This document shows, one piece after another, positions 51,082 to 64,000 of a stretch of DNA of 64,000 nt. The notes below the pieces were generated by a model. It did no database searches. It saw only the letters and a list, made by a program, of their open reading frames with translations, and was not told where the DNA came from. Origin of the DNA: a virus. Its lineage: Duplodnaviria > Caudoviricetes. The DNA lies in IMG/VR virus record IMGVR_UViG_3300031555_001519, positions 1-64,000 of that record; one strand, 5' to 3'. Positions within the stretch are counted from its first letter, which is position 1, and each line of letters starts with the position of its first letter. The translations under genes were made by a program, and so were the position numbers.

Positions 51082-51158
51082 TTGCGACACCTTATAATTA
51101 AAGCATCAAGAAAATTACCCATAAATATTATTTGAAACAAGAAAGGATGATAATATAT

Positions 51159-52364
51159 ATGGGAAAAGACTTAAAAGGTAAAGAATTAGGAGTTGGATTA
51201 GGACAAAGAAAGGATGGTAGATACGAAGCAAGAGCAGTTGTTAATGGTGTTAAAATTGCTATATATGATTTTAATTTGAATGAATTAAAAAGAGAGTTTG
51301 AGAGAGAAAAAGAAAAAGCAAAAAGAAGCAATGTTGTACATTGTCCCGATGTTACAGTTATGGAATGGTTTGATGCATGGTTCGAGCAATATAAAAAACC
51401 AACATTAAAACCGACAGGCGTAGTAGGGTATAAAAGAAAGTTTGTCAATACATACGGTGCTCAATTGGGCTTCGTTAAAGTCAAGGAATTAAATCAGTTC
51501 ATAGTTCAAACCGCAACATCTGAACTAGTTAATAAAGGATATAAGTTTAAAACAATTCGAGATGCACTGGCTGTATTAAAACTTATGTTAGAAGCTGCTG
51601 TAGGGAATTGTGTAATTGATTATAATCCAGCTTTAGGTATTATTGTACCAACATATGCAGAAACTAAAGAAGAAAGAAGAGTGTTATCAAAGCAAGAACA
51701 AAAAACTTTTCTCGATAAAATTGAATCTTCTTTTTATAAAGAGCTTTATCATTTTATGTTATTAACCGGTGTACGTGTTGGTGAAATGGGTGCATTACAA
51801 TGGTCTGATATAGACTTTGAAAATGAATTCATTAACATATATCACTCACTAACTTGTCATTATGTTAAAGGTAAAAAGACTCTCATGATGTCCACACCAA
51901 AAACAAAAAACTCTTTCAGGAAAATACCATTTTTCGGAGAAACAAAACAAATACTTTTAGCACAAAAAGAAAAACAAAAAGAATTAAAAAAGCAACTTGG
52001 TGACAGATGGAGAGGCTCTGAAGAACTTGATAATGCCGATTTGGTATTTACTACATCTATGGGTTCTCCGGTTACTCGTTACGTTCTAGAGCATGATATG
52101 AGACAAGTAGCGAAAGATATCAATACTATTGAATTATATAATGCTACAAGAGAAGGAAGAGAAACAGTTGCTTTTGATCATCTACACCCTCATGCACTAA
52201 GACATACTTTTGCTACAAGATGTTTTGAAAAAGGCATGAGTGTAGAAACAGTCCAGAAAATAATGGGACACGCAAATATTAATATGACTATGAGTTACAC
52301 ACACGTTTTAGACGACATGTTAAAGAAAGCTGCAGTAGATGTGGGTAATTTCTTAGATGCGTAA
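51159..52364 (+). CDS. Phage integrase (tyrosine recombinase)
   Basis: N-terminal arm-binding QRKDGRYEAR; TGVRVGE, HALRHTFAT, MGHANINMTMSY. Confidence 0.93.
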   Translation: MGKDLKGKELGVGLGQRKDGRYEARAVVNGVKIAIYDFNLNELKREFEREKEKAKRSNVVHCPDVTVMEWFDAWFEQYKKPTLKPTGVVGYKRKFVNTYGAQLGFVKVKELNQFIVQTATSELVNKGYKFKTIRDALAVLKLMLEAAVGNCVIDYNPALGIIVPTYAETKEERRVLSKQEQKTFLDKIESSFYKELYHFMLLTGVRVGEMGALQWSDIDFENEFINIYHSLTCHYVKGKKTLMMSTPKTKNSFRKIPFFGETKQILLAQKEKQKELKKQLGDRWRGSEELDNADLVFTTSMGSPVTRYVLEHDMRQVAKDINTIELYNATREGRETVAFDHLHPHALRHTFATRCFEKGMSVETVQKIMGHANINMTMSYTHVLDDMLKKAAVDVGNFLDA

Positions 52365-52740
52365 AACTGTTGCGACAGATTACGATTTGCGTATAAAAAT
52401 TGAACTAACCAAGATTTATTTTAATATATGTTGCGTAAAAGTTGCGTAAAAATCGCAAGCAAGTGTTGCGAAGCCAGTAAAATCAAGGCTTCCCAAAAAA
52501 CTTATCAAAACAAATGTTAGGATAAATTCTTCGGCAAAGTTGTATGAGAACAACGGTTCAAATCCCTTTATTTTCTAGGGTTTGAGCCGTTTTTCTATGT
52601 GCAAAAACTAAATCTTGATGCGAAATTATTTTAGTAAAACACGGCATAAAATGGCATATTTTTTCCATGATTTGCGTATAGAATTGCAACGGATTTGCGT
52701 AAATTCAGAATACAAGAATCTGCGGCTAAGTTACGCAAAA
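52358..52740. other. Probable attP with arm-type repeats
   Basis: TGCGTAWA repeats near 52358, 52388, 52432, 52443, 52673, 52696 and inverted TTACGCAA at 52731, surrounding a central region. Confidence 0.65.
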
Positions 52741-52786
52741 TAAAGCTATGAAACTGGGTAATTTTCTTGTAATAACACTTCAAACA

Positions 52787-52835
52787 AAAATCAAAAAAGG
52801 GGGATATCTCAGTGAGATAACCCCCCTTTGATTTT
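52787..52835. terminator. Bidirectional terminator between convergent int and rep
   Basis: GGGGG.TATCTC-agt-GAGATA.CCCCC with A/T tracts on both sides. Confidence 0.7.
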
Positions 52836-52838
52836 ATC

Positions 52839-53642
52839 TTACATACTAACTAAATTCTGATAATGAATATCTAATGTTAATACTGAATTGTATAAAACAG
52901 ATAAGACAAAATTCCTCATATTAGTTATTTTGGTTTTATAATTGTTAATAGCATCAATGGTATAATTGATATGATTCATATTAACTTTCAATAATATAGT
53001 TTTCAAATGTTCGCTATTTATTTCCCCATTATTAATTTTAATACTTTTATAATTGTTAGCTAATATGTCTACCATTATATCCACTATATTATCTACTAAC
53101 TCTTTGTTAGACGAACTAACAAACACCGGATCATAATCAATATTGTTTCGTATGATGTTTGTATATAAAGTATTATTATTTATATTATTATTACTTAAGT
53201 TCTTATTATACGAGTGGGTTTCCCACTGTATAGGTAAGCTACCATGTGGGAATTCCACAGGTGGAGAATCCACAAGTGGGTTTTCAACATATGGACTAGT
53301 AGGAGTATGAGCCACACGTTGATTTTCAACATGTGGGTTATCACACACTTCGTATTCATAATAAAATTGTTTTGATTCTTCATCACGTAATTTATATTGA
53401 ATAAGATATCCATTGTCTTTTAATTCTTTCCATGCACCTCTAAATGCGGTTTCTCCATCCTTTGATTTGTTAATTAAAAATTGTTTGTAGAGCACAAAGT
53501 TGTCTAAGCTAATATAAGATTCAATAAGTGATAATAACCCCTTGGCTTTCAAAGACAAATTCTCGTCTCTAAGAGCAATATTACTAACTTGAGCAAATGA
53601 TGTCTTTTTCTTTCTGAAAGCTCCTGCCGGCATGTAAATCAC
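52839..53642 (-). CDS. Replication initiator (N-terminal HTH, DUF6017-like C-terminus)
   Basis: VSNIALRDENLSLKAKGLL..ELKDNGY; P.VEN repeats; C-terminal ITNMRNFVLSVLYN. Confidence 0.75.
   Translation of the reverse strand: MIYMPAGAFRKKKTSFAQVSNIALRDENLSLKAKGLLSLIESYISLDNFVLYKQFLINKSKDGETAFRGAWKELKDNGYLIQYKLRDEESKQFYYEYEVCDNPHVENQRVAHTPTSPYVENPLVDSPPVEFPHGSLPIQWETHSYNKNLSNNNINNNTLYTNIIRNNIDYDPVFVSSSNKELVDNIVDIMVDILANNYKSIKINNGEINSEHLKTILLKVNMNHINYTIDAINNYKTKITNMRNFVLSVLYNSVLTLDIHYQNLVSM
53235..53336 (-). repeat. 15-bp iterons inside rep (probable origin)
   Basis: CCACATGTTGAAAAT, CCATATGTTGAAAAC, CCACTTGTGGATTCT, CCACCTGTGGAATTC, CCACATGGTAGCTTA, followed by an AT-rich tract. Confidence 0.65.
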
Positions 53643-53645
53643 TCC

Positions 53646-54701
53646 CTATTTAATTAATTTCATTAATTTCTCTCTTGCAGAAAGTTCTTGAGTTGCTTTT
53701 TTATTTTGTGTGGGTATAATATTATAATCGTCTTTAAATACAAATTCAGAACTAAATTGCATATCCATTTCAATTTTCTTTTTATCTTCTTGAATAGAAT
53801 CATATAAGCGATTAATTACAGTTACCGGATATTGTAAACCACTCATGAACACCATATCTGATTTTGTTTGATAACCTTGGAAAACATCTCTCCAATATCC
53901 GAATGATAATTGTAATTCATCATAATCAATCCTTACCGTCTTGCGCATGGTAGTAGATTTAATTCCACAGTAATATAATGTATTGCGTAATTCTATATCT
54001 GCAAAAATATTATTTGTAATAGCAGCTTTAATTGATGGAGTAATATCTGCTTGTGTTGGTTTGCGTACAAAATGATTAAGTACTCCATATCCCTTTTGTT
54101 CTAACATTGCACAAATCTCTGAATAATCATATATGCCATCAATAGAAGTGGACACATCAGATATAAGTGAATATATTAAATTGGCAAGTGTTTCATTACT
54201 TCTAACAAAATTAGATTCTTTATTATTATCAACAATGAATACAGTATGTTGAGCACATCCGAATAATTCTTTTAACAATTCATATGAATTAGTCTTTGCT
54301 TGTAATGACTCTGATAAACTTGGGATAGTAATAACTGGAATAACAATTTTCCCAAGTTCGTTTTCTAATAACTCTGTCATCAACGCACACATTCCGGAAG
54401 AAGTACCACCACCAGTAGAACCAAATAAGAATACATATTTACCAGTTAAATAGCGTTCTATATGTTTTAAGATGTCTTCATAATTATGTGCTAAATAAGC
54501 CTTAGATACATTTCTATCTTTATGACAACCAATTGCGCCTTTAACATGATAGTAGTGCATATCTTGTAATCCTAAACTATTCAAATCTTCCATAGCAGAG
54601 TTAATATAAAAACTTGCTAAATTATATTTTTTAAAAGCTGCAACTTGATTTCCACCACAAGCGCCAATTCCTAATAATCCAAAATCTTTTAAATCATGCA
54701 T
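53646..54701 (-). CDS. tubZ: Tubulin/FtsZ-family GTPase (TubZ-like partition motor)
   Basis: GIGACGGN, INS..D, GSTGGGTSSG tubulin signature, VDN. Confidence 0.8.
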   Translation of the reverse strand: MHDLKDFGLLGIGACGGNQVAAFKKYNLASFYINSAMEDLNSLGLQDMHYYHVKGAIGCHKDRNVSKAYLAHNYEDILKHIERYLTGKYVFLFGSTGGGTSSGMCALMTELLENELGKIVIPVITIPSLSESLQAKTNSYELLKELFGCAQHTVFIVDNNKESNFVRSNETLANLIYSLISDVSTSIDGIYDYSEICAMLEQKGYGVLNHFVRKPTQADITPSIKAAITNNIFADIELRNTLYYCGIKSTTMRKTVRIDYDELQLSFGYWRDVFQGYQTKSDMVFMSGLQYPVTVINRLYDSIQEDKKKIEMDMQFSSEFVFKDDYNIIPTQNKKATQELSAREKLMKLIK

Positions 54702-54703
54702 AA

Positions 54704-54964
54704 TTAAACCCCCTTAATTAAATTAATACCATCTTCAGTAATGTAATACATTTTTTGTTTCCCATAATTCCCTGATTGGCACACTAACTGTTTATTAATT
54801 AATTTTGATAAATGTTTCCAAACACAAGCTCTTTTTACTTCGGTGATATTCATTTCTTTAATTGTCAACCCAAGTATGTGATTTGTTGCGCCATTAGAAT
54901 CCAAGGAGCTTAAAATAAGATAGTCAATTCTGGAAAGTTCCGTTTGGTTCTTTGCTGTTCCCAT
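54704..54964 (-). CDS. Winged-helix protein (TubR-like adaptor)
   Basis: wHTH pattern ending YYITEDG; directly upstream of tubZ. Confidence 0.65.
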   Translation of the reverse strand: MGTAKNQTELSRIDYLILSSLDSNGATNHILGLTIKEMNITEVKRACVWKHLSKLINKQLVCQSGNYGKQKMYYITEDGINLIKGV

Positions 54965-55349: not shown

Positions 55350-56678
55350 TCATTCAGACAAATCTAATAACATATTATACTCATCTTCAGAAATAATCTT
55401 TAAAGCCCATTCTTTAGGACAATGCATTTTAAATCTTTTATTAATATTATTCTTCTTATGATACATGTTCCATAAATAAACATTAGCTAAAGAACGTGCT
55501 TTATGCATTTCACAAATATGAGTAACACGCTTATCTGCTGAACCTGTTTCTTGATAATTATTTGCACTACACCAAGCACAACCTTCAGCAATAGGGCAGT
55601 AGAAGCACTCATCAGTGCTTTGAGTTCTTCTATCAATGCAGTTCAAACATTTAATACATTTCTGTTCACATTTTTTAGACGCAATTCCGGTATTAACACT
55701 GCCAATTCTTAAGGGCTTACGAGAACTTCCTAACGAACTTTCCATATATCTGATGCATGGGTATAAATATCCATCCGGATCACAAGATAACATAAACCCA
55801 GTACCACCACACCAATTCTGCAAATCATTTTCATCCTTAGGCTTAAAGAAAATTTCTTCAAATAAAGAACAATAAGTATTGCCAACTAAGTCATTATCTA
55901 CAAAGTAGTCAGCTATCTTTTTTAACTGTTTATAAAACTCAATTGCATGTTCTTGTTCCCAACCTTTTTCATAAACACAATTTGCATTAATATCTAAATA
56001 CCCTAATTCAACCATATGTATAATTGCATCATAAAGATAGTTTATATTACCAGGTGCAATAGTAATTTTACTCCCCATATAATTACCTTTTTCAATCCAG
56101 TCATTAGCACCAGCAATAGCAATATCATAACTAGGACTTCCATTAGGAAATACTCTGCATGAATCATGCAATTCTTTATTACCATCTATTGTAATAGAGA
56201 AAGACATGTGTTCTTTATTTTTATTTAAAAAATTCTGAACTTTTTCATCAAAGTAAAGAACACCATTTGAGCAAATGCTAATGCAATAATTGGTTGCCCA
56301 TGGATGCATTAATTCAATAGCTCGAACTCTAAAATAGTCTACAATCTGGTCTATTAATTCTACTTCAAGAAATGGTTCTCCACCTATAAACTCAAGTACA
56401 ATTGCTGGAGAAGTATCAGTATTTATATATTCTTTAAATCCTTTTTCACCAGATAGAAGAAGGTCTATAAATTTTTTAGCAATGTCAAAAGACATTCTTC
56501 TTTTACCTTTATTAATTTGATAACAGTATGTACATGCAAGATTACATGCGTCTGTCACTTGAAATGTTACAGTTCTTGATAATATTCTTTCCTTTTGATT
56601 CTCTGACAATGTTTCAGGATACAATCTTGCGATCATATCCTGCCATTGTTCCATACGTCTTAACTTTTTCTCTGACAT
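55350..56678 (-). CDS. Radical SAM/SPASM peptide maturase, CXXX-repeat target family
   Basis: CNLACTYCY, FIGGEP, SPASM NWCGG..YPC..CFYCPIAEGCAWC..C. Confidence 0.88.
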   Translation of the reverse strand: MSEKKLRRMEQWQDMIARLYPETLSENQKERILSRTVTFQVTDACNLACTYCYQINKGKRRMSFDIAKKFIDLLLSGEKGFKEYINTDTSPAIVLEFIGGEPFLEVELIDQIVDYFRVRAIELMHPWATNYCISICSNGVLYFDEKVQNFLNKNKEHMSFSITIDGNKELHDSCRVFPNGSPSYDIAIAGANDWIEKGNYMGSKITIAPGNINYLYDAIIHMVELGYLDINANCVYEKGWEQEHAIEFYKQLKKIADYFVDNDLVGNTYCSLFEEIFFKPKDENDLQNWCGGTGFMLSCDPDGYLYPCIRYMESSLGSSRKPLRIGSVNTGIASKKCEQKCIKCLNCIDRRTQSTDECFYCPIAEGCAWCSANNYQETGSADKRVTHICEMHKARSLANVYLWNMYHKKNNINKRFKMHCPKEWALKIISEDEYNMLLDLSE

Positions 56679-56689
56679 AAAAACTCCCT

Positions 56690-57043
56690 TTACTCTGTTA
56701 TTTCTTCGTCTAATGCTTTAATTCCACATTCGCATAACACATCAATTGTCATTTCATTTGTTTGAAAATCTATTGCCCAATTATATTGATGTTTGCCATA
56801 TAAGATTTCTGGTACATATAATTTTTCTACTTCTATTTTGGCAACTTCAAATTCTGCGTTAATCCTAGATAACTCCTCTGAATATTTTAAAAATGGTTTA
56901 CTTACAAACAAACTATCATCCGCATCATTCTTGTGTGACTCGATTAGTTTTGCTATTACTTCCTCCCTAGTTTTTACCTCAAACTGTAATCTCTGAATAT
57001 AGTTAATCATTTCCTGTTCAATATTTACTTTAATTGTTTTCAT
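56690..57043 (-). CDS. Accessory protein of the CXXX-repeat modification system
   Basis: Lies between precursor and maturase; WAIDFQTNEM C-terminus. Confidence 0.55.
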   Translation of the reverse strand: MKTIKVNIEQEMINYIQRLQFEVKTREEVIAKLIESHKNDADDSLFVSKPFLKYSEELSRINAEFEVAKIEVEKLYVPEILYGKHQYNWAIDFQTNEMTIDVLCECGIKALDEEITE

Positions 57044-57080
57044 TTATAAAATCTCCTTTTATTATTTTTATGTTAAATTG

Positions 57081-58214
57081 TTAAGCAATTCCAGTTGCAC
57101 TACCAAAACATTGTGAAGTACAAGAGGAGTAGCAAGTGGAACTACATGTGCTACTGCAAGAGTTTTGGCAACCAGTTTGACATGAACTACTACAGTTTGA
57201 ACCACAGCTTCCGCCACAGCTACTACATCCACTACAACCTGAGCATCCTTCACATGAGCTTGTACAACCTGAACAACCTAAGCATCCACTTGTGCATCCT
57301 GTACACCCCAAATAGCAACTTGAGCCACATCCGGCTGTACATGCAGTACAACTAGAACATCCTGTACAGCTTCCACTACATCCTGCACATGATGAACCAC
57401 ATGAATACAAACACATACCTGTACATGTACCAACACATCCACCACATCCTGAGCATCCATTACAACTTGCAGCACAGTCACTACACGAAGACCAGCTATT
57501 ATTATTACAAGTAGCACTACACGAATTACCACACGATGAAGAACAGTTTCCGGTACAAGAGTTGCAACCAGAGCTACACCCTCTACTACAAGTACCAGAA
57601 CACGAACCTGTACAAGCAGCTCCACATGAGGAACCACAGTCGCCACATGATGTACATCCTGTACAACCACTACATTTTGACATACAAGAATACCCACATG
57701 TTCCAGTACAGCTAATACATCCACCAGAACATTGTGAATCACAGGAGCCACCACAACCAGAACAAGATCCACAGGCATTACCACAGCCCCCACATCCAGA
57801 ACAACCTGAAGAACAACCTGAGCATCCACTACAAGTTCCACTGCAACCACTACAAACACTAAAGCATGTACCGACACATAATCCAGTACACGCCCCTCTG
57901 CATGATGAAGAGGCACCCGTTGTAGATTCTTTTGCTAAGTTGTCAACATAAGTTAATAAACTTGAAGTGATATTTTTATCTGGAATGGGTTCGCCTTTCA
58001 CTACATTTTTTAAACCACTTATGTCTTTTATTTTTAATAGTAAATCAATTGTTTTTTGTCCTTGTTCAGCATATATTTTACTCCCTGAACTTGGTGTGTT
58101 TGAAAAATCATACGTGGATGTAGCATATGTACTTAAAGAACCATAACCTGACCTTCTTGCCATTTCTGCTTTTACTTTTGATTTTAAAGATATCAATTCT
58201 TGTGCTGTTATCAT
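57081..58214 (-). CDS. Cys-rich CxxC/CxxxC-repeat protein, probable maturase substrate
   Basis: 104-aa Cys-free N-terminus, then ~73 Cys in Ser/Gly/Thr-rich repeats; AAGGAGG RBS. Confidence 0.85.
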
Positions 58215-58229
58215 TTATCCACCTCCTTA

Positions 58230-58745
58230 TTAAGACCATGTTCCATAACCAGTACCTACAACTCCTAATACAGTTTTACCGGCAACAAGCTTGTCTGCTG
58301 TGAGTCCAATTGCGCTTGCTAATGCAGAATAAGATACATACACATATGCATTTGTATCATAATATCCTGAAGCAGGTATTTGTAATCTTACTCTACTGTT
58401 TGTAGTATCCAAAGATGAAACAGCAGATGTATTTGAACTTGCTTTATTGGCCATCGTACCGGTAATTTTTATATCATTAACATAAGCAGTATAACCGGAT
58501 AGAATATTACTTGCAGTTGCAGTAGCATCGGAAGTTTTTACTCCTGTTTGAATAACCATAATATTCTCAGCCATTGTAGCAAATGTAGCTGTTGCATCTG
58601 TAGCAACACCTTTGTCAGTAATAGCAGATGCAACTACTTTTTTTCCATTACTGACAGATTGAAAAAGTTCATTATACTTCGTATCTATGTAAGATTTTGC
58701 TTTTTGCCAGAAATATAACAAACCATCATGAGTTAAAAATTTCAT
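58230..58745 (-). CDS. Tail fibre-associated protein
   Basis: FQSVSNGKKVVASAITDKGV and DATATASNILSGYTAYV..ITGTM motifs. Confidence 0.7.
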   Translation of the reverse strand: MKFLTHDGLLYFWQKAKSYIDTKYNELFQSVSNGKKVVASAITDKGVATDATATFATMAENIMVIQTGVKTSDATATASNILSGYTAYVNDIKITGTMANKASSNTSAVSSLDTTNSRVRLQIPASGYYDTNAYVYVSYSALASAIGLTADKLVAGKTVLGVVGTGYGTWS

Positions 58746-58759
58746 AATTAGTCCCCCTT

Positions 58760-59566
58760 TTATACAATAATTTCATCAATTTCTGTATTCGTAATCGCTA
58801 CAATTCCCAATGCACTTTCATCGATAGTTATTGTTACTGCATTAGAACCATCATATGAAGTTGTAGTACCGTTAATATCAAATGATAATGCGGTTGGATT
58901 TTTTAATGTAGTTGGGAAATTTGTTATATCAGATAATATATGAGTGTGGATAGAGGGGATATATTCTGATGGCTTTCCTGTAATACCACTCCAATCAACA
59001 GAAGTAGCAGTACCAGCAGTATATTGCTCATAACCATTTTCTACTGTTAATTGAGTATCATCTATTACAAAGTACATCAATCCGGTTTCATTTACTTTTA
59101 CAGTATCACCTTTTTGAACATCATTTATTGTTAATGAAAACCTATCCATATCTGTTGCAACTACGACAAGTCTTTCTAATGCACCGACAGGCAATCTTGC
59201 AATATCAATAGTACCAGTTAATTTAGTGGCATCTAAGCTTATAATATCTGCATCCGTATGATTATGAATTATTTTTGCGGCATCGGTAATTCCATATTCA
59301 TTTAAAGTAGTTGGGTTACTACCACTTATGATATGTCCGTTTATATCAACGGTAACTTTTGTATAATCACCTGTCTCTACACCGCTTGTTGGATGAATAT
59401 ATTTGTTTGCACCTTCTTCAATTTCTGTTAATTTATTTTTCTCCTCAGTGGTATAATCATTTGTACTTAAATCTTTACCATCAACTTTATCTACTTTAGT
59501 TAACATTCTTGTTTTAATTTGTTCCCACAAATAAGTAAGACCGTTCATATCCAAATATTTAGCCAT
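58760..59566 (-). CDS. Tail fibre protein
   Basis: KVDKVDGKDLSTNDYT, YTKVTVDINGH, HxH repeats, VDWSGITGKP. Confidence 0.8.
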   Translation of the reverse strand: MAKYLDMNGLTYLWEQIKTRMLTKVDKVDGKDLSTNDYTTEEKNKLTEIEEGANKYIHPTSGVETGDYTKVTVDINGHIISGSNPTTLNEYGITDAAKIIHNHTDADIISLDATKLTGTIDIARLPVGALERLVVVATDMDRFSLTINDVQKGDTVKVNETGLMYFVIDDTQLTVENGYEQYTAGTATSVDWSGITGKPSEYIPSIHTHILSDITNFPTTLKNPTALSFDINGTTTSYDGSNAVTITIDESALGIVAITNTEIDEIIV

Positions 59567-59583
59567 AGTACATCTGCCTCCTA

Positions 59584-60345
59584 TTAATTATTTAAAACAT
59601 TATCAATTTCTTCCCTTGAAATGCTACTATTATCATTTTCACCAACACCTGCGTCATCATCTGCTAAAGATGCAGTACCATCAATAATTTTATCTATTTC
59701 TTCGTTTTTTATTTTTATAGAACCTAATAAAATATTCATTGATAAAACAGGAGTCCAAACAGGAGATGTATCATTTGGAAAATAACCAATATTATCATAA
59801 TTTGCAGTCCATAAAACATTATTACTGCTTACTAGGTCATATTGATAATATTGTGTAAATCCGTTCCACTCACCCCTTGGCGTTAATCCAAATCCAGATT
59901 CACCTTGGTCTCCACGAATAACTCTTGGAACCCAATAGGTTGTATTAGTTGGTGCAACTCCGATTGGCGTATCATCCCTTAAACATTCATAAGTTTGGAC
60001 AATATCACCTACTGTGTGAGTTACAAAATTATATTTCACATACTTAGACGCTGCGTTCCATTCTCCTTTATGAACTACAGTTTCGTGAATATAAGCCTGA
60101 ATATTATTCAAAAACAAGTCCTCAATTTCTTCCACTGTTTTAGTTACGTTGTTCATATAAACGCTATCAATAATACATTTTTTCAACTCGGCATTATTTT
60201 GTAGAAGAGTAGTAGCATTAGCAAATTGTCCATTGGCAATATGAGTATTAAATTGTTTCCAGTCGTTATATACACTACTTGATACATCAGTTTTCAAATC
60301 AAATCTTTGTACACTATCTGGAAAAGTTGTATAAGCATTTGCCAT
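59584..60345 (-). CDS. Tail/baseplate protein with carbohydrate-binding-like repeats
   Basis: Two GEWN...Y..Y..V....W repeats. Confidence 0.65.
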   Translation of the reverse strand: MANAYTTFPDSVQRFDLKTDVSSSVYNDWKQFNTHIANGQFANATTLLQNNAELKKCIIDSVYMNNVTKTVEEIEDLFLNNIQAYIHETVVHKGEWNAASKYVKYNFVTHTVGDIVQTYECLRDDTPIGVAPTNTTYWVPRVIRGDQGESGFGLTPRGEWNGFTQYYQYDLVSSNNVLWTANYDNIGYFPNDTSPVWTPVLSMNILLGSIKIKNEEIDKIIDGTASLADDDAGVGENDNSSISREEIDNVLNN

Positions 60346-60356
60346 ATTTTTCCCTC

Positions 60357-61769
60357 CTAACTGTACGGATCTTGGTCATAAAAAAGAACCATAGATACAT
60401 CTATGATTCCTCCAATCGTTGATCCGGTTATTTGTTTTATTACATATCTTTTTGTATCTTTAGTAGTGTAAGATTGATATTCTATCAACCAATTAACATC
60501 AAGCCATGGTATATCAATCATATTTATATTCGTAGTTTCTTGTAATCTACAAGCATGATATAGTTCATAATTTGCTCTGTCTTGAGCCAGCGAATTAGAA
60601 TATATCTTCTCAAATTCTCCACCGGTACATATTTTAGTCACTTCTTTAATCTTGTTCTTATGAAAAGGTGAACGTAGATTTGTTTCACTTGCTTCGGCAT
60701 ATACTTGATAAGAGCCTAATAAATAAAAATTATTATCAGCCTTCCTATACTTAAACACATTATATCCATTATTTAATGAATTTGCTTTTAATCTGTCACC
60801 ATTATCATAAGTAATGGGAAGTGCTATTCCGTTTAGGCTTAATATGGGATTTTCGCTATTTGTTTGAGGCATATAAACAGCATACTTACCAAAATTATTC
60901 AATCCATCTACCGTAGTAATAGTAGCAGTATAAGTATTAGTTGCAGCATTATATGTACATTGGTCTGTAGAATAATCTGGTTCAATTGATTGTCCCCATA
61001 CAATAATTCTGTTATAGACATCCTTAAATGAGGTATTAGACGTTTCACTAATAACTAATGGTGTGATAAACGAACTGTCCAGCATTATATTCGCACTATC
61101 TTGATGAGGGATTTTTTGAATTACAAATGTTCCATCAATATCAAAGAACATTTCAAAATAAGAGAAGAGTGATACTATTTCATTTAACGCATCATAGTAT
61201 GTTTTACTTTCATCAAATTCCATTTCGTATGGTATTTTCAAATTATCCATATCTGAAATAACAAATTTTCTAACCATTGTCTCAGATAACAATTTAACAA
61301 TAACGTCTCGAACTTTTTCACCTTCTTCAATCTTAATAGAACTTTTCAATGCGCCATTTCGTTCTCCATTTAATTCACTCATTAAATCTGAACATGACAA
61401 TGATAAAACATTGGTAGATACGTCAAAAGTGTAATTGCTATCTAACATAGTGAAAGTACCTTTAAGATATTTTATAATATTAGATGTTCTATTTTCTTTG
61501 ATTCCAATATATGGTCTTATATATTTATCCATCCATATGCGTTTATCATAACCAATTAGCATAGAAGAGTCAGTGACTAATAACTCCATAGAATAAGTTC
61601 TTCTTATTGCCGAATTTGCATCAATAGAAAATGAATCTGAAATCAATTTTCCCTCAATATAATCTATAACCTTAAAATCAGAATTAAGAAGCTCTACAAT
61701 TATAGATAGATCTTTTGTAGATTGATTTACAATATTTTTATCAGTTTGAGTGATTATCATAAATATCAC
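60357..61769 (-). CDS. Tail hub/baseplate protein (DUF5048-like)
   Basis: IRRT, CSDLMSELNGERNG, MFFDIDGTF; tail-operon context. Confidence 0.65.
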   Translation of the reverse strand: MIFMIITQTDKNIVNQSTKDLSIIVELLNSDFKVIDYIEGKLISDSFSIDANSAIRRTYSMELLVTDSSMLIGYDKRIWMDKYIRPYIGIKENRTSNIIKYLKGTFTMLDSNYTFDVSTNVLSLSCSDLMSELNGERNGALKSSIKIEEGEKVRDVIVKLLSETMVRKFVISDMDNLKIPYEMEFDESKTYYDALNEIVSLFSYFEMFFDIDGTFVIQKIPHQDSANIMLDSSFITPLVISETSNTSFKDVYNRIIVWGQSIEPDYSTDQCTYNAATNTYTATITTVDGLNNFGKYAVYMPQTNSENPILSLNGIALPITYDNGDRLKANSLNNGYNVFKYRKADNNFYLLGSYQVYAEASETNLRSPFHKNKIKEVTKICTGGEFEKIYSNSLAQDRANYELYHACRLQETTNINMIDIPWLDVNWLIEYQSYTTKDTKRYVIKQITGSTIGGIIDVSMVLFYDQDPYS

Positions 61770-62653
61770 ACACCTTCCACATCAACATCTGATAGTCCGG
61801 CATTGAATAAATCTGTAGTACTATCACAATCGCCAACTTCAGTAAATACTATATTACAAACCACATTATCAGGATGACCATCAACAGTCTGAGTAATAGT
61901 ATTACCAGCACTAACTAACCATCTTTGTCCTTGGTCATCTTTAAGAACAATAGAATCATTTTCTGCTAAAAAATTCATAACTTCTCTACGATAAGCCGGA
62001 GCATTATCTATATCAAGTTCACAACCAATCATGGGAATAAAACTCGCACTCATTGAAATAGAGTCGTATTGTGATATTCCATTAGTGATTACAAAAGGTT
62101 TCTTTTTTCCTAAAGTGGTTATGAATTCTCTATTCTGATTACTTGTCACTTCTAAAGATAAATTAACAAACGCTTTATATTGTTTTGTCTGAGTACATAA
62201 ATAGCAACCGTCAAAATCTGATACCACGGTATTAGTTATATAGCTTGATTCTATATTATTTAAAACTGGAACAATTGCAAGTTCATATACTGTTTTATTA
62301 CCTTTTAGAAAATAATAAGTTCTAGCAAAATCAAAATCTTCTTCTGAATGAACCTCGTATTCATAAATAGTTGTCCACAGCGTTTTCCCATATTCACGAA
62401 CTTTAATACGCATAGAAGTTATTGCACTGATAGGGATAAGTATATTTCCGGCAAGTAAATTACCTTTAAATGTAGCCCAGAATATCGTGTTCATATCCCA
62501 TACCAAGTCACCTGGCATTTTATTATAATCAGCATTTGAACTTACATACAAATCATTTATGCAAAAATTAGTAATGTCAACAGAATATAAAGTATCGGCC
62601 TTACTTGGTTTTAAAATGTCTGAGCCAATAGATGTAGCACCTAAAAATATCAT
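61766..62653 (-). CDS. Tail/baseplate structural protein
   Basis: Operon context; FTEVGD C-terminus. Confidence 0.6.
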   Translation of the reverse strand: MIFLGATSIGSDILKPSKADTLYSVDITNFCINDLYVSSNADYNKMPGDLVWDMNTIFWATFKGNLLAGNILIPISAITSMRIKVREYGKTLWTTIYEYEVHSEEDFDFARTYYFLKGNKTVYELAIVPVLNNIESSYITNTVVSDFDGCYLCTQTKQYKAFVNLSLEVTSNQNREFITTLGKKKPFVITNGISQYDSISMSASFIPMIGCELDIDNAPAYRREVMNFLAENDSIVLKDDQGQRWLVSAGNTITQTVDGHPDNVVCNIVFTEVGDCDSTTDLFNAGLSDVDVEGV

Positions 62654-63663
62654 ACGTCCACCTCCATATCAAATAAGGTGTTTTTCCTTTTTACACGTAG
62701 AACAATCTCTTGTGAATGATAGGGATTGATTCTGGTTATCATATATGTGTTATTGATATATCTTGCAATAAGTTCAAAATAATATATATCTTTATACTTA
62801 TCATATTTGTACGCAACAATTATAGATTCATCATTCCCTGATAAGTACAATATATTTGAACCTACTTCAAATCCATAACCTCGTATCAATAATGAGAAAT
62901 CATTAGAAATAACAAATCCCTTATTAAAATGAACTACATTGTTTGTTAGGTCTGCGATCTCATTATCAATATAAGTCACTTCGGATTCAGATGTGCCTTC
63001 TACCGATACAATATTAGACTTAATATATACACCACCAGTGTCATACATATTCTGAAGCTCGCATACAAAATATGTTTCGGATTTAACAAAATCAACTGAA
63101 AAACTTATTTGTCCGGTAGTTAATTGCATACCATTGATTGTTTCACCGGTAGCAATAATAATATAATGACTATTATCTTGCAAATTAGTTACTCTTACAG
63201 TGTCCAAAATATATCTAATATTTGAGTCATATACAATTGCATTTGCAGAATTATATACTCTAATCCTATAAGATTGTAATAGCTCGTCTTCTGGCTGTGA
63301 ATAAGTAATATTTACCCCATATGTTTGTGCTCTAATAATTTGGTCTGGAGCAATATTTATTTGAAAGGTTGGTGTGGTAATACAGTAGAAGAGAAGTGTA
63401 TCAGACCATTCAGAATCTTTCCCATCAACATCTGTTACTTTTACAGATGCATTATATAATGTTCCATTTCTTAATCCGGACGAAGCCGGTACAGAATGCT
63501 CAGGCCTCATTGTAAGTAACGTTTTTTCATACATAATAACATTTGTATTGTTATCTCTTATAATTAAAGTGTTACTATAAATTTGATTACCAAGCCATGA
63601 AAATTTAATAGTACTTCCATATGCAGAATCGAAGGATGGTATTAAAAATAAACTAGGTTTCAT
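62650..63663 (-). CDS. Baseplate protein with FnIII/Ig-like domains
   Basis: Beta-rich; LRNGTLY..V....SEWS pattern. Confidence 0.6.
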   Translation of the reverse strand: MKPSLFLIPSFDSAYGSTIKFSWLGNQIYSNTLIIRDNNTNVIMYEKTLLTMRPEHSVPASSGLRNGTLYNASVKVTDVDGKDSEWSDTLLFYCITTPTFQINIAPDQIIRAQTYGVNITYSQPEDELLQSYRIRVYNSANAIVYDSNIRYILDTVRVTNLQDNSHYIIIATGETINGMQLTTGQISFSVDFVKSETYFVCELQNMYDTGGVYIKSNIVSVEGTSESEVTYIDNEIADLTNNVVHFNKGFVISNDFSLLIRGYGFEVGSNILYLSGNDESIIVAYKYDKYKDIYYFELIARYINNTYMITRINPYHSQEIVLRVKRKNTLFDMEVDV

Positions 63664-63942: not shown

Positions 63943-63980
63943 AAAAAAAGGGGCAATCATAAATTAATATGATCGCCCCT
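63943..63980 (-). terminator. Rho-independent terminator
   Basis: AGGGGCAATCATA/TATGATCGCCCCT with an A tract on the + strand. Confidence 0.7.
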
Positions 63981-64000
63981 TACATTATTTAGAGTGTAGT

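Follow-up and report, generated by a model that had tools for sequence, protein, structure and literature searches.

A cysteine-ladder protein and its candidate maturase at the end of a phage tail operon: a possible thioether-stapled tail appendage

A tail operon of the large gut phage studied here, known from the IMG/VR record IMGVR_UViG_3300031555_001519, ends in three genes, which encode a cysteine-repeat protein of 377 residues, a helper protein of 117 residues and a radical S-adenosylmethionine (SAM)/SPASM maturase of 442 residues. We analyzed the first 64,000 nucleotides of that record (hereafter the window), in which the three genes lie on the minus strand at 57081-58214, 56690-57043 and 55350-56678, respectively. 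The same trio, referred to below as the cassette, was found beside tail, baseplate or fiber genes in many divergent phages. We propose that the phage produces a thioether-stapled tail appendage by maturing a protein expressed with its late tail genes, in a manner resembling that of peptides made on the ribosome and modified after their translation (RiPPs), and we think that this reading as a whole has an even chance of being correct. Its parts differ in strength. The 377-residue protein is very probably the substrate of the enzyme, the product is more likely than not a virion component, and the chemistry, judged by analogy with characterized enzymes, leans toward thioether formation.

The product of the last gene matched the NCBIfam model TIGR04115 (“radical SAM peptide maturase, CXXX-repeat target family”) over positions 2-358 of its 359, with a hidden Markov model score of 507.2 bits (E 3.1e-152) against a curated cut-off of 350 bits, and the match was also confirmed on the genome record. 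The adjacent CXXX-repeat target expected for members of this family is present as a tract of 73 cysteines two genes upstream of the enzyme. These results bore out the original prediction that the gene encodes a SPASM maturase. The scores against models of other families were all below their cut-offs (PapB, 165 versus 340 bits; SCIFF maturase, 108 versus 425; QhpD, 108 versus 453; CrpC-type TIGR04463, 61 versus 525), and by this measure the PapB, QhpD, SCIFF and CrpC enzymes are relatives or functional analogues of the window enzyme and not members of the same families. The next-best models after TIGR04115 were those of PapB, QhpD and the SCIFF maturase, all of which are thioether-forming enzymes.

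The CX3CX2C motif of the enzyme lies at C45, C49 and C52 and was invariant in 15 relatives, as were the C-terminal SPASM cysteines C290, C308, C344, C358, C361, C367, C370 and C389, which align with the SPASM region of CteB. This thioether-forming enzyme also provided the closest solved structure (5WGG, E 1.3e-21). Because the alignment with CteB started only at CteB residue 83 (residue 20 of the query), past the RiPP recognition element (RRE) of CteB, the window enzyme lacks an N-terminal RRE; its radical SAM core begins at about residue 35. Some TIGR04115-type enzymes were found to be interrupted by inteins, with P0006, P0083 and P0088 carrying Hint or LAGLIDADG Pfam domains, and at locus L114 (12170-14113) the intein splits the CX3CX2C motif itself (C-N-L-A-C-T-Y / intein / C-Y-Q). 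The other matches of the enzyme in the GenBank phage set, which were 21-25% identical to it and came from jumbo phages of Erwinia and Salmonella, were assigned to a different radical SAM group and set aside.

The presumed substrate has two clearly distinct parts. Residues 1-104 (57903-58214, minus strand) constitute a cysteine-free N-terminal domain (N-domain), and residues 105-369 (57108-57902, minus strand) a ladder of 43 CXXX and 28 CXX units. The 73 cysteines of the protein begin at residue 105 and end at residue 369, and the 72 spacings between them are of four residues in 43 cases, three residues in 28 cases and eight residues in one. Cysteine makes up 27.5% of the tract and the remainder is mostly serine, glycine and threonine. 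Spacings of three or four residues accounted for 98.6% of those observed; when the tract was shuffled 20,000 times, they averaged 25% and never exceeded 46%. The DNA encoding the tract is no recent tandem array and held only three short repeats, of 2-2.6 copies. The original prediction had described the three genes, the cysteine-free domain of 104 residues, the approximately 73 cysteines spaced every 3-4 residues, the terminator and the intergenic gaps of 11-37 nt, and all of these coordinates and features held.

The 377-residue protein had no match in Pfam, NCBIfam or PHROG. AlphaFold2 predicted four helices in the N-domain (residues 4-20, 28-31, 49-62 and 81-95) with a pLDDT (the predicted score in a local distance difference test) of 86-98; for the ladder the pLDDT was mostly <50, a low confidence at which no shape was read from the model. 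The best match of the N-domain fold in the PDB, to the CH domain of fimbrin (Z 5.8, root-mean-square deviation 4.7 over 87 residues), was below the chance level for helical folds and was rejected. In a viral structure library, the N-domain matched only uncharacterized proteins of its own family from gut viromes.

The ladder opens with the motif C-x3-C-x-G-L-C-x3-C, of which C105, C109, G111 and C113 were invariant, and L112 nearly so, in 93 relatives. Of 91 family representatives, 83 had this motif, as did all 85 of the N-domain open reading frames (ORFs) in the related loci described below, and it also begins the substrate of a cellular system (L003), which carries a twin-arginine translocation (Tat) signal. 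Judged from these alignments, the opening motif is likely where the enzyme enters the substrate, and the helical N-domain is likely a phage-specific addition.

The 117-residue helper had no family match in Pfam, NCBIfam or PHROG, including no match to PqqD in Pfam. The AlphaFold2 model of the helper (pLDDT 94) runs from a strand through a long helical hairpin and a beta-hairpin to a helix, and on this model the helper is not a winged-helix RRE. Structure searches of the PDB gave generic helical hairpins, the best with a Z of 6.8, which is below the chance level for helical folds, and Foldseek gave no match at E <= 0.001. Even so, nearly all of the related loci had kept the helper together with the enzyme. 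NCBIfam lists a second family for systems of this type, TIGR04116 (CXXX repeat peptide modification system protein), and the window helper did not match this model even at E <= 1. A single helper of the 24 in the alignment gave a TIGR04116 match (2.3e-30), and we presume that it is the protein from L003. A profile of the phage helpers matched that TIGR04116 member weakly (hhalign probability 33%, E 4.7e-4), and a C-terminal W-x-[ILV]-[DN]-F motif is common to both; homology of the phage helper with the TIGR04116 member is plausible on these comparisons. A 334-residue relative, P0121, has a C-terminal end like the W-x-L-D-F of the helper and may be a fusion of substrate and helper or a read-through gene call.

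With an alignment of the enzyme, 171 places were confirmed in IMG/VR; the 80 that we kept, together with 26 in species-representative genomes, made up a set of 106 loci. The 26 species-representative places were all in strict anaerobes of the Clostridia type, e.g., Lachnospiraceae, Oscillospiraceae and Eubacterium. The trio of N-domain/cysteine protein, helper and enzyme was present in nearly all 106 loci, down to an enzyme identity of ~54%. A TIGR04115 member was found in two of 399 sampled Clostridia genomes versus the 171 confirmed viral contigs, and this rarity is as expected for a mobile, phage-borne trait.

Searching 1.84 billion representatives with the N-domain identified 234 clusters (at 50% identity). 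Among the 150 of these clusters that were listed, nearly all that were long enough to be complete ran on into a cysteine ladder. Most of them were 150-230 residues long with 10-30 cysteines, and a few were 435-543 residues long with 56-68 cysteines. In the GenBank phage set, the N-domain was found on one metagenomic contig only. Ladder proteins of 350-570 residues with 60-105 cysteines were common in the loci that the enzyme alignment gave. The original prediction had called the substrate “very large”, which is correct when the protein is compared with classical RiPP precursors. Within its own family, by contrast, the protein is of ordinary size, as the substrates of relatives range from 168 to ~570 residues and have up to 105 cysteines.

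The genes upstream of the cassette in these relatives linked it to tail modules. PHROG matches identified tail fiber genes upstream in L039, L049, L085, L089 and L106, a tail protein gene in L047, a baseplate wedge gene (phrog_6) in L057 and L095, a minor tail protein gene in L085 and virion structural families in L009 and L046. Fiber genes flank the cassette on both sides in L057, L085 and L002, the last of which has an enzyme only 37% identical to that of the window, and an endolysin gene lies downstream of the cassette in L046 and L049. The cassette is tail-linked across unrelated tail types, in divergent phages and in prophages. The related prophages in cultured hosts include L085, in Anaerolentibacter hominis CSJ-1, and L096, in Eubacterium pyruvativorans i6. 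The original prediction had counted a lack of this linkage in relatives as evidence against itself; instead, tail, baseplate or fiber neighbors were seen in many divergent phages.

In the window itself, the cassette closes a run of ten minus-strand genes (63960-55350) whose intergenic gaps range from -4 to 37 nt. The first of the ten is a 94-residue gene without an assignment. It is followed by the baseplate/tail genes (60357-63663, minus strand; 337, 295 and 470 residues, in that order), where start and stop codons overlap by 4 nt and the 470-residue product matches DUF5048 and phrog_1887 (“tail protein”). Then come three tail-fiber-like genes (58230-60345, minus strand; 253, 268 and 171 residues, in that order), with gaps of 14-17 nt, whose products match phrog_26419, 32680, 9574, 5073 and others among the tail-fiber and tail-protein PHROGs. 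The genes for the cysteine protein, helper and enzyme trail these baseplate and fiber genes at gaps of 11-37 nt. A Shine-Dalgarno-like purine run precedes nine of the ten genes; it is weak at the gene with a GTG start at 61769, which overlaps its neighbor.

Directly 3′ of the stop codon of the enzyme gene is an intrinsic-terminator-like hairpin (55343-55316, minus strand; 12 stem pairs, six of them G-C, then TTTTTTT), which marks the end of the operon. No terminator with a proper T-run was found on the minus strand from 63948 to 55343. Matches to sigma-70-like promoters were not above the shuffled background (50 seen versus 55.8 expected) and are uninformative either way on an internal promoter. 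Within the cassette, which consists of the three genes and then the terminator, there was no signal peptide, protease gene or exporter gene.

At the other end of the operon, a hairpin of 14 bp with a T-run (63948-63981, minus strand) lies four bases past the stop codon of a 1534-residue ORF (63985-68589 in G000; 985-5589 in L113), apparently a tape-measure-like gene heading the tail module. The hairpin overlaps the listed ATG of the 94-residue ORF, the true start of which may be an internal methionine, and it could serve as an attenuator separating the tape-measure gene from the operon of baseplate, fiber and cysteine-protein genes. Directly downstream of the cassette, at 51132-54964 in the window, is a maintenance module of the plasmid-prophage type. 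This includes genes for a TubR-like regulator (86 residues), a TubZ tubulin-like GTPase (351 residues; PF00091, TubZ_C_3) and a DUF6017/DnaD-like replication initiator (267 residues), as well as, on the opposite strand, a 410-residue protein that by eye resembles a tyrosine recombinase. The same TubR/TubZ-type module is found downstream of the cassette in L005 and L050.

Several relatives differ from the window protein in architecture. Both P0232 (715 residues) and P0129 (522 residues) have large non-cysteine C-terminal domains after the ladder, a layout of N-domain, shaft and head that is fiber-like as far as can be read from the sequences. The P0232 cluster also encodes a Phage_fiber_rpt protein, a second N-domain protein and a leaderless ladder protein of 101 residues, along with an enzyme that is split by an intein and shares 54% identity with that of the window. 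In P0150, which is on a contig of only 2.9 kb, a domain between the N-domain and the cysteine tract matches PHROGs annotated as “tail protein” and “host range and adsorption protein” (E 2.5e-14). At the more distant locus L109 (11017-13770), a protein of 917 residues combines a 93-cysteine ladder with two PG_binding_1 domains and a C-terminal glycine-zipper segment; it has no N-domain and its gene adjoins that of a 48%-identical enzyme. Based on its domains, we take the L109 protein to be a cell-wall-anchored variant. The predicted fusions favor an extracellular role in which the product contacts the cell surface.

In four loci, the substrate is split into two ORFs (L062, 7362-8345; L090, 2289-3409; L093, 7242-8290; and L098, 5765-6840), one with the N-domain and a short ladder of 11-16 cysteines and the other leaderless with 44-54 cysteines and the C-terminal ending of the window protein. 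The two ORFs overlap in different frames in L090, L093 and L098, which could represent a frameshift, either real or an assembly error. In L108 (7850-8668) the order is permuted, such that the cysteine ladder comes first and a segment like the start of the N-domain (…IRNEMTRRG…) is at the C-terminus.

The mechanism that we envisage is as follows. In the anoxic cytoplasm of the host, the TIGR04115 enzyme would work with the 117-residue helper, which would recognize the substrate, and the enzyme would engage the substrate at or near the entry motif C-x3-C-x-G-L-C-x3-C. Many of the 73 cysteines would then be converted to intramolecular thioether links with neighboring serine, threonine or glycine residues. 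In this way, a floppy tract of serine, glycine, threonine and cysteine may become a rod held by covalent staples, unaffected by redox conditions and independent of disulfides. With neither a protease nor an exporter encoded in the cassette, and no signal peptide, the product probably remains whole and becomes part of the tail. Uncleaved, it would be mounted as an appendage on or near the baseplate or fibers, and the phage-specific helical N-domain would serve as an assembly or docking module. The proposal of thioether chemistry is based on the nearest relatives of the enzyme and on an analogy with the archaeal proteins CrpC and CrpA.

CrpC, a SPASM radical SAM enzyme of Methanococcus voltae, installs several intramolecular ranthionine thioethers on CrpA, a cysteine-rich repeat protein of 28.8 kDa (PMC13692751). 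An N-terminal domain of CrpA aids its engagement by CrpC, and a third small protein raises the extent of CrpA modification (PMC13692751). What it has in common with the window system, as we read the latter, is a SPASM radical SAM enzyme whose target is a large cysteine-rich protein instead of a peptide, along with an N-terminal substrate domain and a third, small gene product. There are also clear differences. CrpC belongs to TIGR04463, for which the window enzyme scored far below the cut-off, and it has an RRE domain of its own, whereas the window enzyme has none. The repeats of CrpA are of 17 residues with C-x-x-Q/D, as opposed to the CX2-3 spacing with serine, glycine and threonine in the window tract, and the setting of CrpC and CrpA is archaeal and cellular, with no phage link. 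CrpC/CrpA is the nearest experimental precedent for the window system, by analogy and not by family membership.

The best characterized homologues of the window enzyme are PapB, which produces freyrasin, and CteB, which produces thermocellin. PapB staples six tandem C-x3-D units, and this can be viewed as a small-scale analogue of the cysteine ladder. The substrates of PapB and CteB are, however, peptides of ~40-50 residues with leaders, compared with the 377 residues of the window substrate, and both enzymes carry an N-terminal RRE, unlike the window enzyme, whose cassette is also without a protease or exporter. QhpD, another SPASM radical SAM enzyme, puts cysteine thioethers into QhpC, a protein subunit that stays in a larger assembly, the quinohemoprotein amine dehydrogenase. 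QhpC differs in having three cross-links in an enzyme subunit of ~80-100 residues, with no repeat ladder and no phage context. The short precursor, the adjacent peptidase or transporter and the RRE, in enzyme or helper, by which classical sactipeptide and ranthipeptide RiPP clusters are recognized were all absent from the window system.

The type of system is already catalogued, as NCBIfam TIGR04115/TIGR04116, and a cellular example was present among our loci. Although L003 (2222-6270; MT837480.1) carries the label “Bacteriophage sp.”, it has a cellular look. It encodes a CXXX protein with a Tat signal, a TIGR04115-like enzyme, a SPASM-like protein (321 residues), a TIGR04116 helper, and TatA-like and TatC-like proteins. 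L003 resembles the window in that its enzyme has a neighboring target with cysteines 3-4 residues apart, the gene for a small helper is likewise placed, and the tract opens with the same motif. In contrast to the window, a twin-arginine signal peptide replaces the helical domain of 104 residues, there is a second SPASM protein, TatA and TatC are adjacent, and the helper is recognized by the TIGR04116 model, which the window phage helper is not. Judged from its gene content, L003 appears to export the modified protein by a Tat route reserved for it. The phage form, unlike L003, is embedded in tail modules.

A number of observations weigh against a stapled appendage on the virion. The 377-residue protein has no detectable similarity to known fiber domains in Pfam, PHROG or the PDB, and the conservation of its N-domain across phages with unrelated baseplates would fit a maturase-docking role better than that of a baseplate adaptor. 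In L108, a terminase gene and not tail genes lies three genes upstream of the cassette. A DNA search of the GenBank phage set with the cassette gave no match, and no cultured phage in that set carries it. In the literature, we found no publication on a TIGR04115 system or its link to phage tails, and no biochemical or proteomic study of any TIGR04115 system; TIGR04115 was mentioned once, in a pig-microbiome paper on another subject, and the ranthipeptide papers that we found concern SCIFF. In addition, no gene of the operon comes after the cassette, which adjoins the maintenance module, and accessory “morons” typically occupy such a position. One alternative, which we consider unlikely, starts from this position and holds that the cassette is a moron-like insert whose product is late and non-structural, either released at lysis or intracellular, and might for example be adhesive, form a matrix, act like a bacteriocin or scavenge metals. 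As the last unit of the operon, the cassette abuts the TubR/TubZ, replication and integrase module, and in L046 and L049 it is at the junction of the tail and lysis genes, a common moron site. The product of the cellular relative L003 is exported by Tat, and so is secreted and not part of a virion, and the N-domain is conserved whatever the tail type. This alternative sits less easily with the placement of the cassette between fiber genes in L002, L057 and L085, with the short gaps to the tail genes and no promoter of its own above background, with the phage forms having no signal peptide, protease or transporter, and with the fusions to adsorption-like or large C-terminal domains, whose architecture is fiber-like.

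Another possibility concerns the chemistry, namely that the tract is never stapled and instead binds metals or iron-sulfur clusters, or forms disulfides after release, with the radical SAM enzyme performing formylglycine formation, epimerization or carbon-carbon linkage. We judge this to be improbable. The composition of the tract, with its high cysteine content beside serine and glycine, is also metallothionein-like, and the tract has few of the aspartate, glutamate and asparagine residues that are the usual ranthionine acceptors; both features count against thioether stapling. Furthermore, anaerobic sulfatase maturases are among the distant matches of the enzyme, and CrpA itself is suspected of metal binding (PMC13692751). 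The use of Tat export by the cellular variant is typical of cofactor-bearing proteins, but it would be equally expected for a cross-linked protein that is incompatible with Sec. Against a metal-binding role, the strongest characterized relatives (PapB, QhpD and SCIFF/CteB) all form cysteine thioethers, and a maturase and helper co-inherited with every tract would be needless for simple metal binding. That the tract is an artefact, in which a low-complexity, slippage-derived or non-coding sequence lies beside a radical SAM gene by coincidence, is effectively refuted. The sequence is indeed of low complexity and AlphaFold2 confidence is low over the tract, but the frame is open for 377 codons behind a Shine-Dalgarno site, the regularity of the cysteine spacing is far beyond that of any shuffle, the DNA shows no tandem array, the 234 clusters share the architecture and the trio is co-conserved in ~100 loci.

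Enzymes are known to staple small antimicrobial peptides, and a few cellular proteins, through thioethers, and we know of no virus particle protein that is matured in this way. What our analyses suggest as new is the coupling of radical SAM protein maturation to phage tail modules by means of a dedicated helical N-domain. It is possible, although we put this at somewhat less than an even chance, that many phages infecting strictly anaerobic bacteria of the gut carry a tail appendage whose shaft consists not of a folded protein but of a chain of dozens of enzyme-installed thioether rings, made before assembly by a radical SAM enzyme that the phage itself encodes. If the proposal of a stapled tail appendage is correct, the cysteine-ladder protein would be the first virion part to be matured by radical chemistry and would represent a new class of virion post-translational modification, one that takes the place of disulfides, independently of redox conditions, where there is no oxygen. 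It would also explain the recurrence of the cassette in hundreds of uncultured gut phages and would give a biological role to the unstudied TIGR04115 family. Finally, the enzyme and its substrate would be a natural pair capable of tens of cross-links per chain, which would be of interest for protein engineering.

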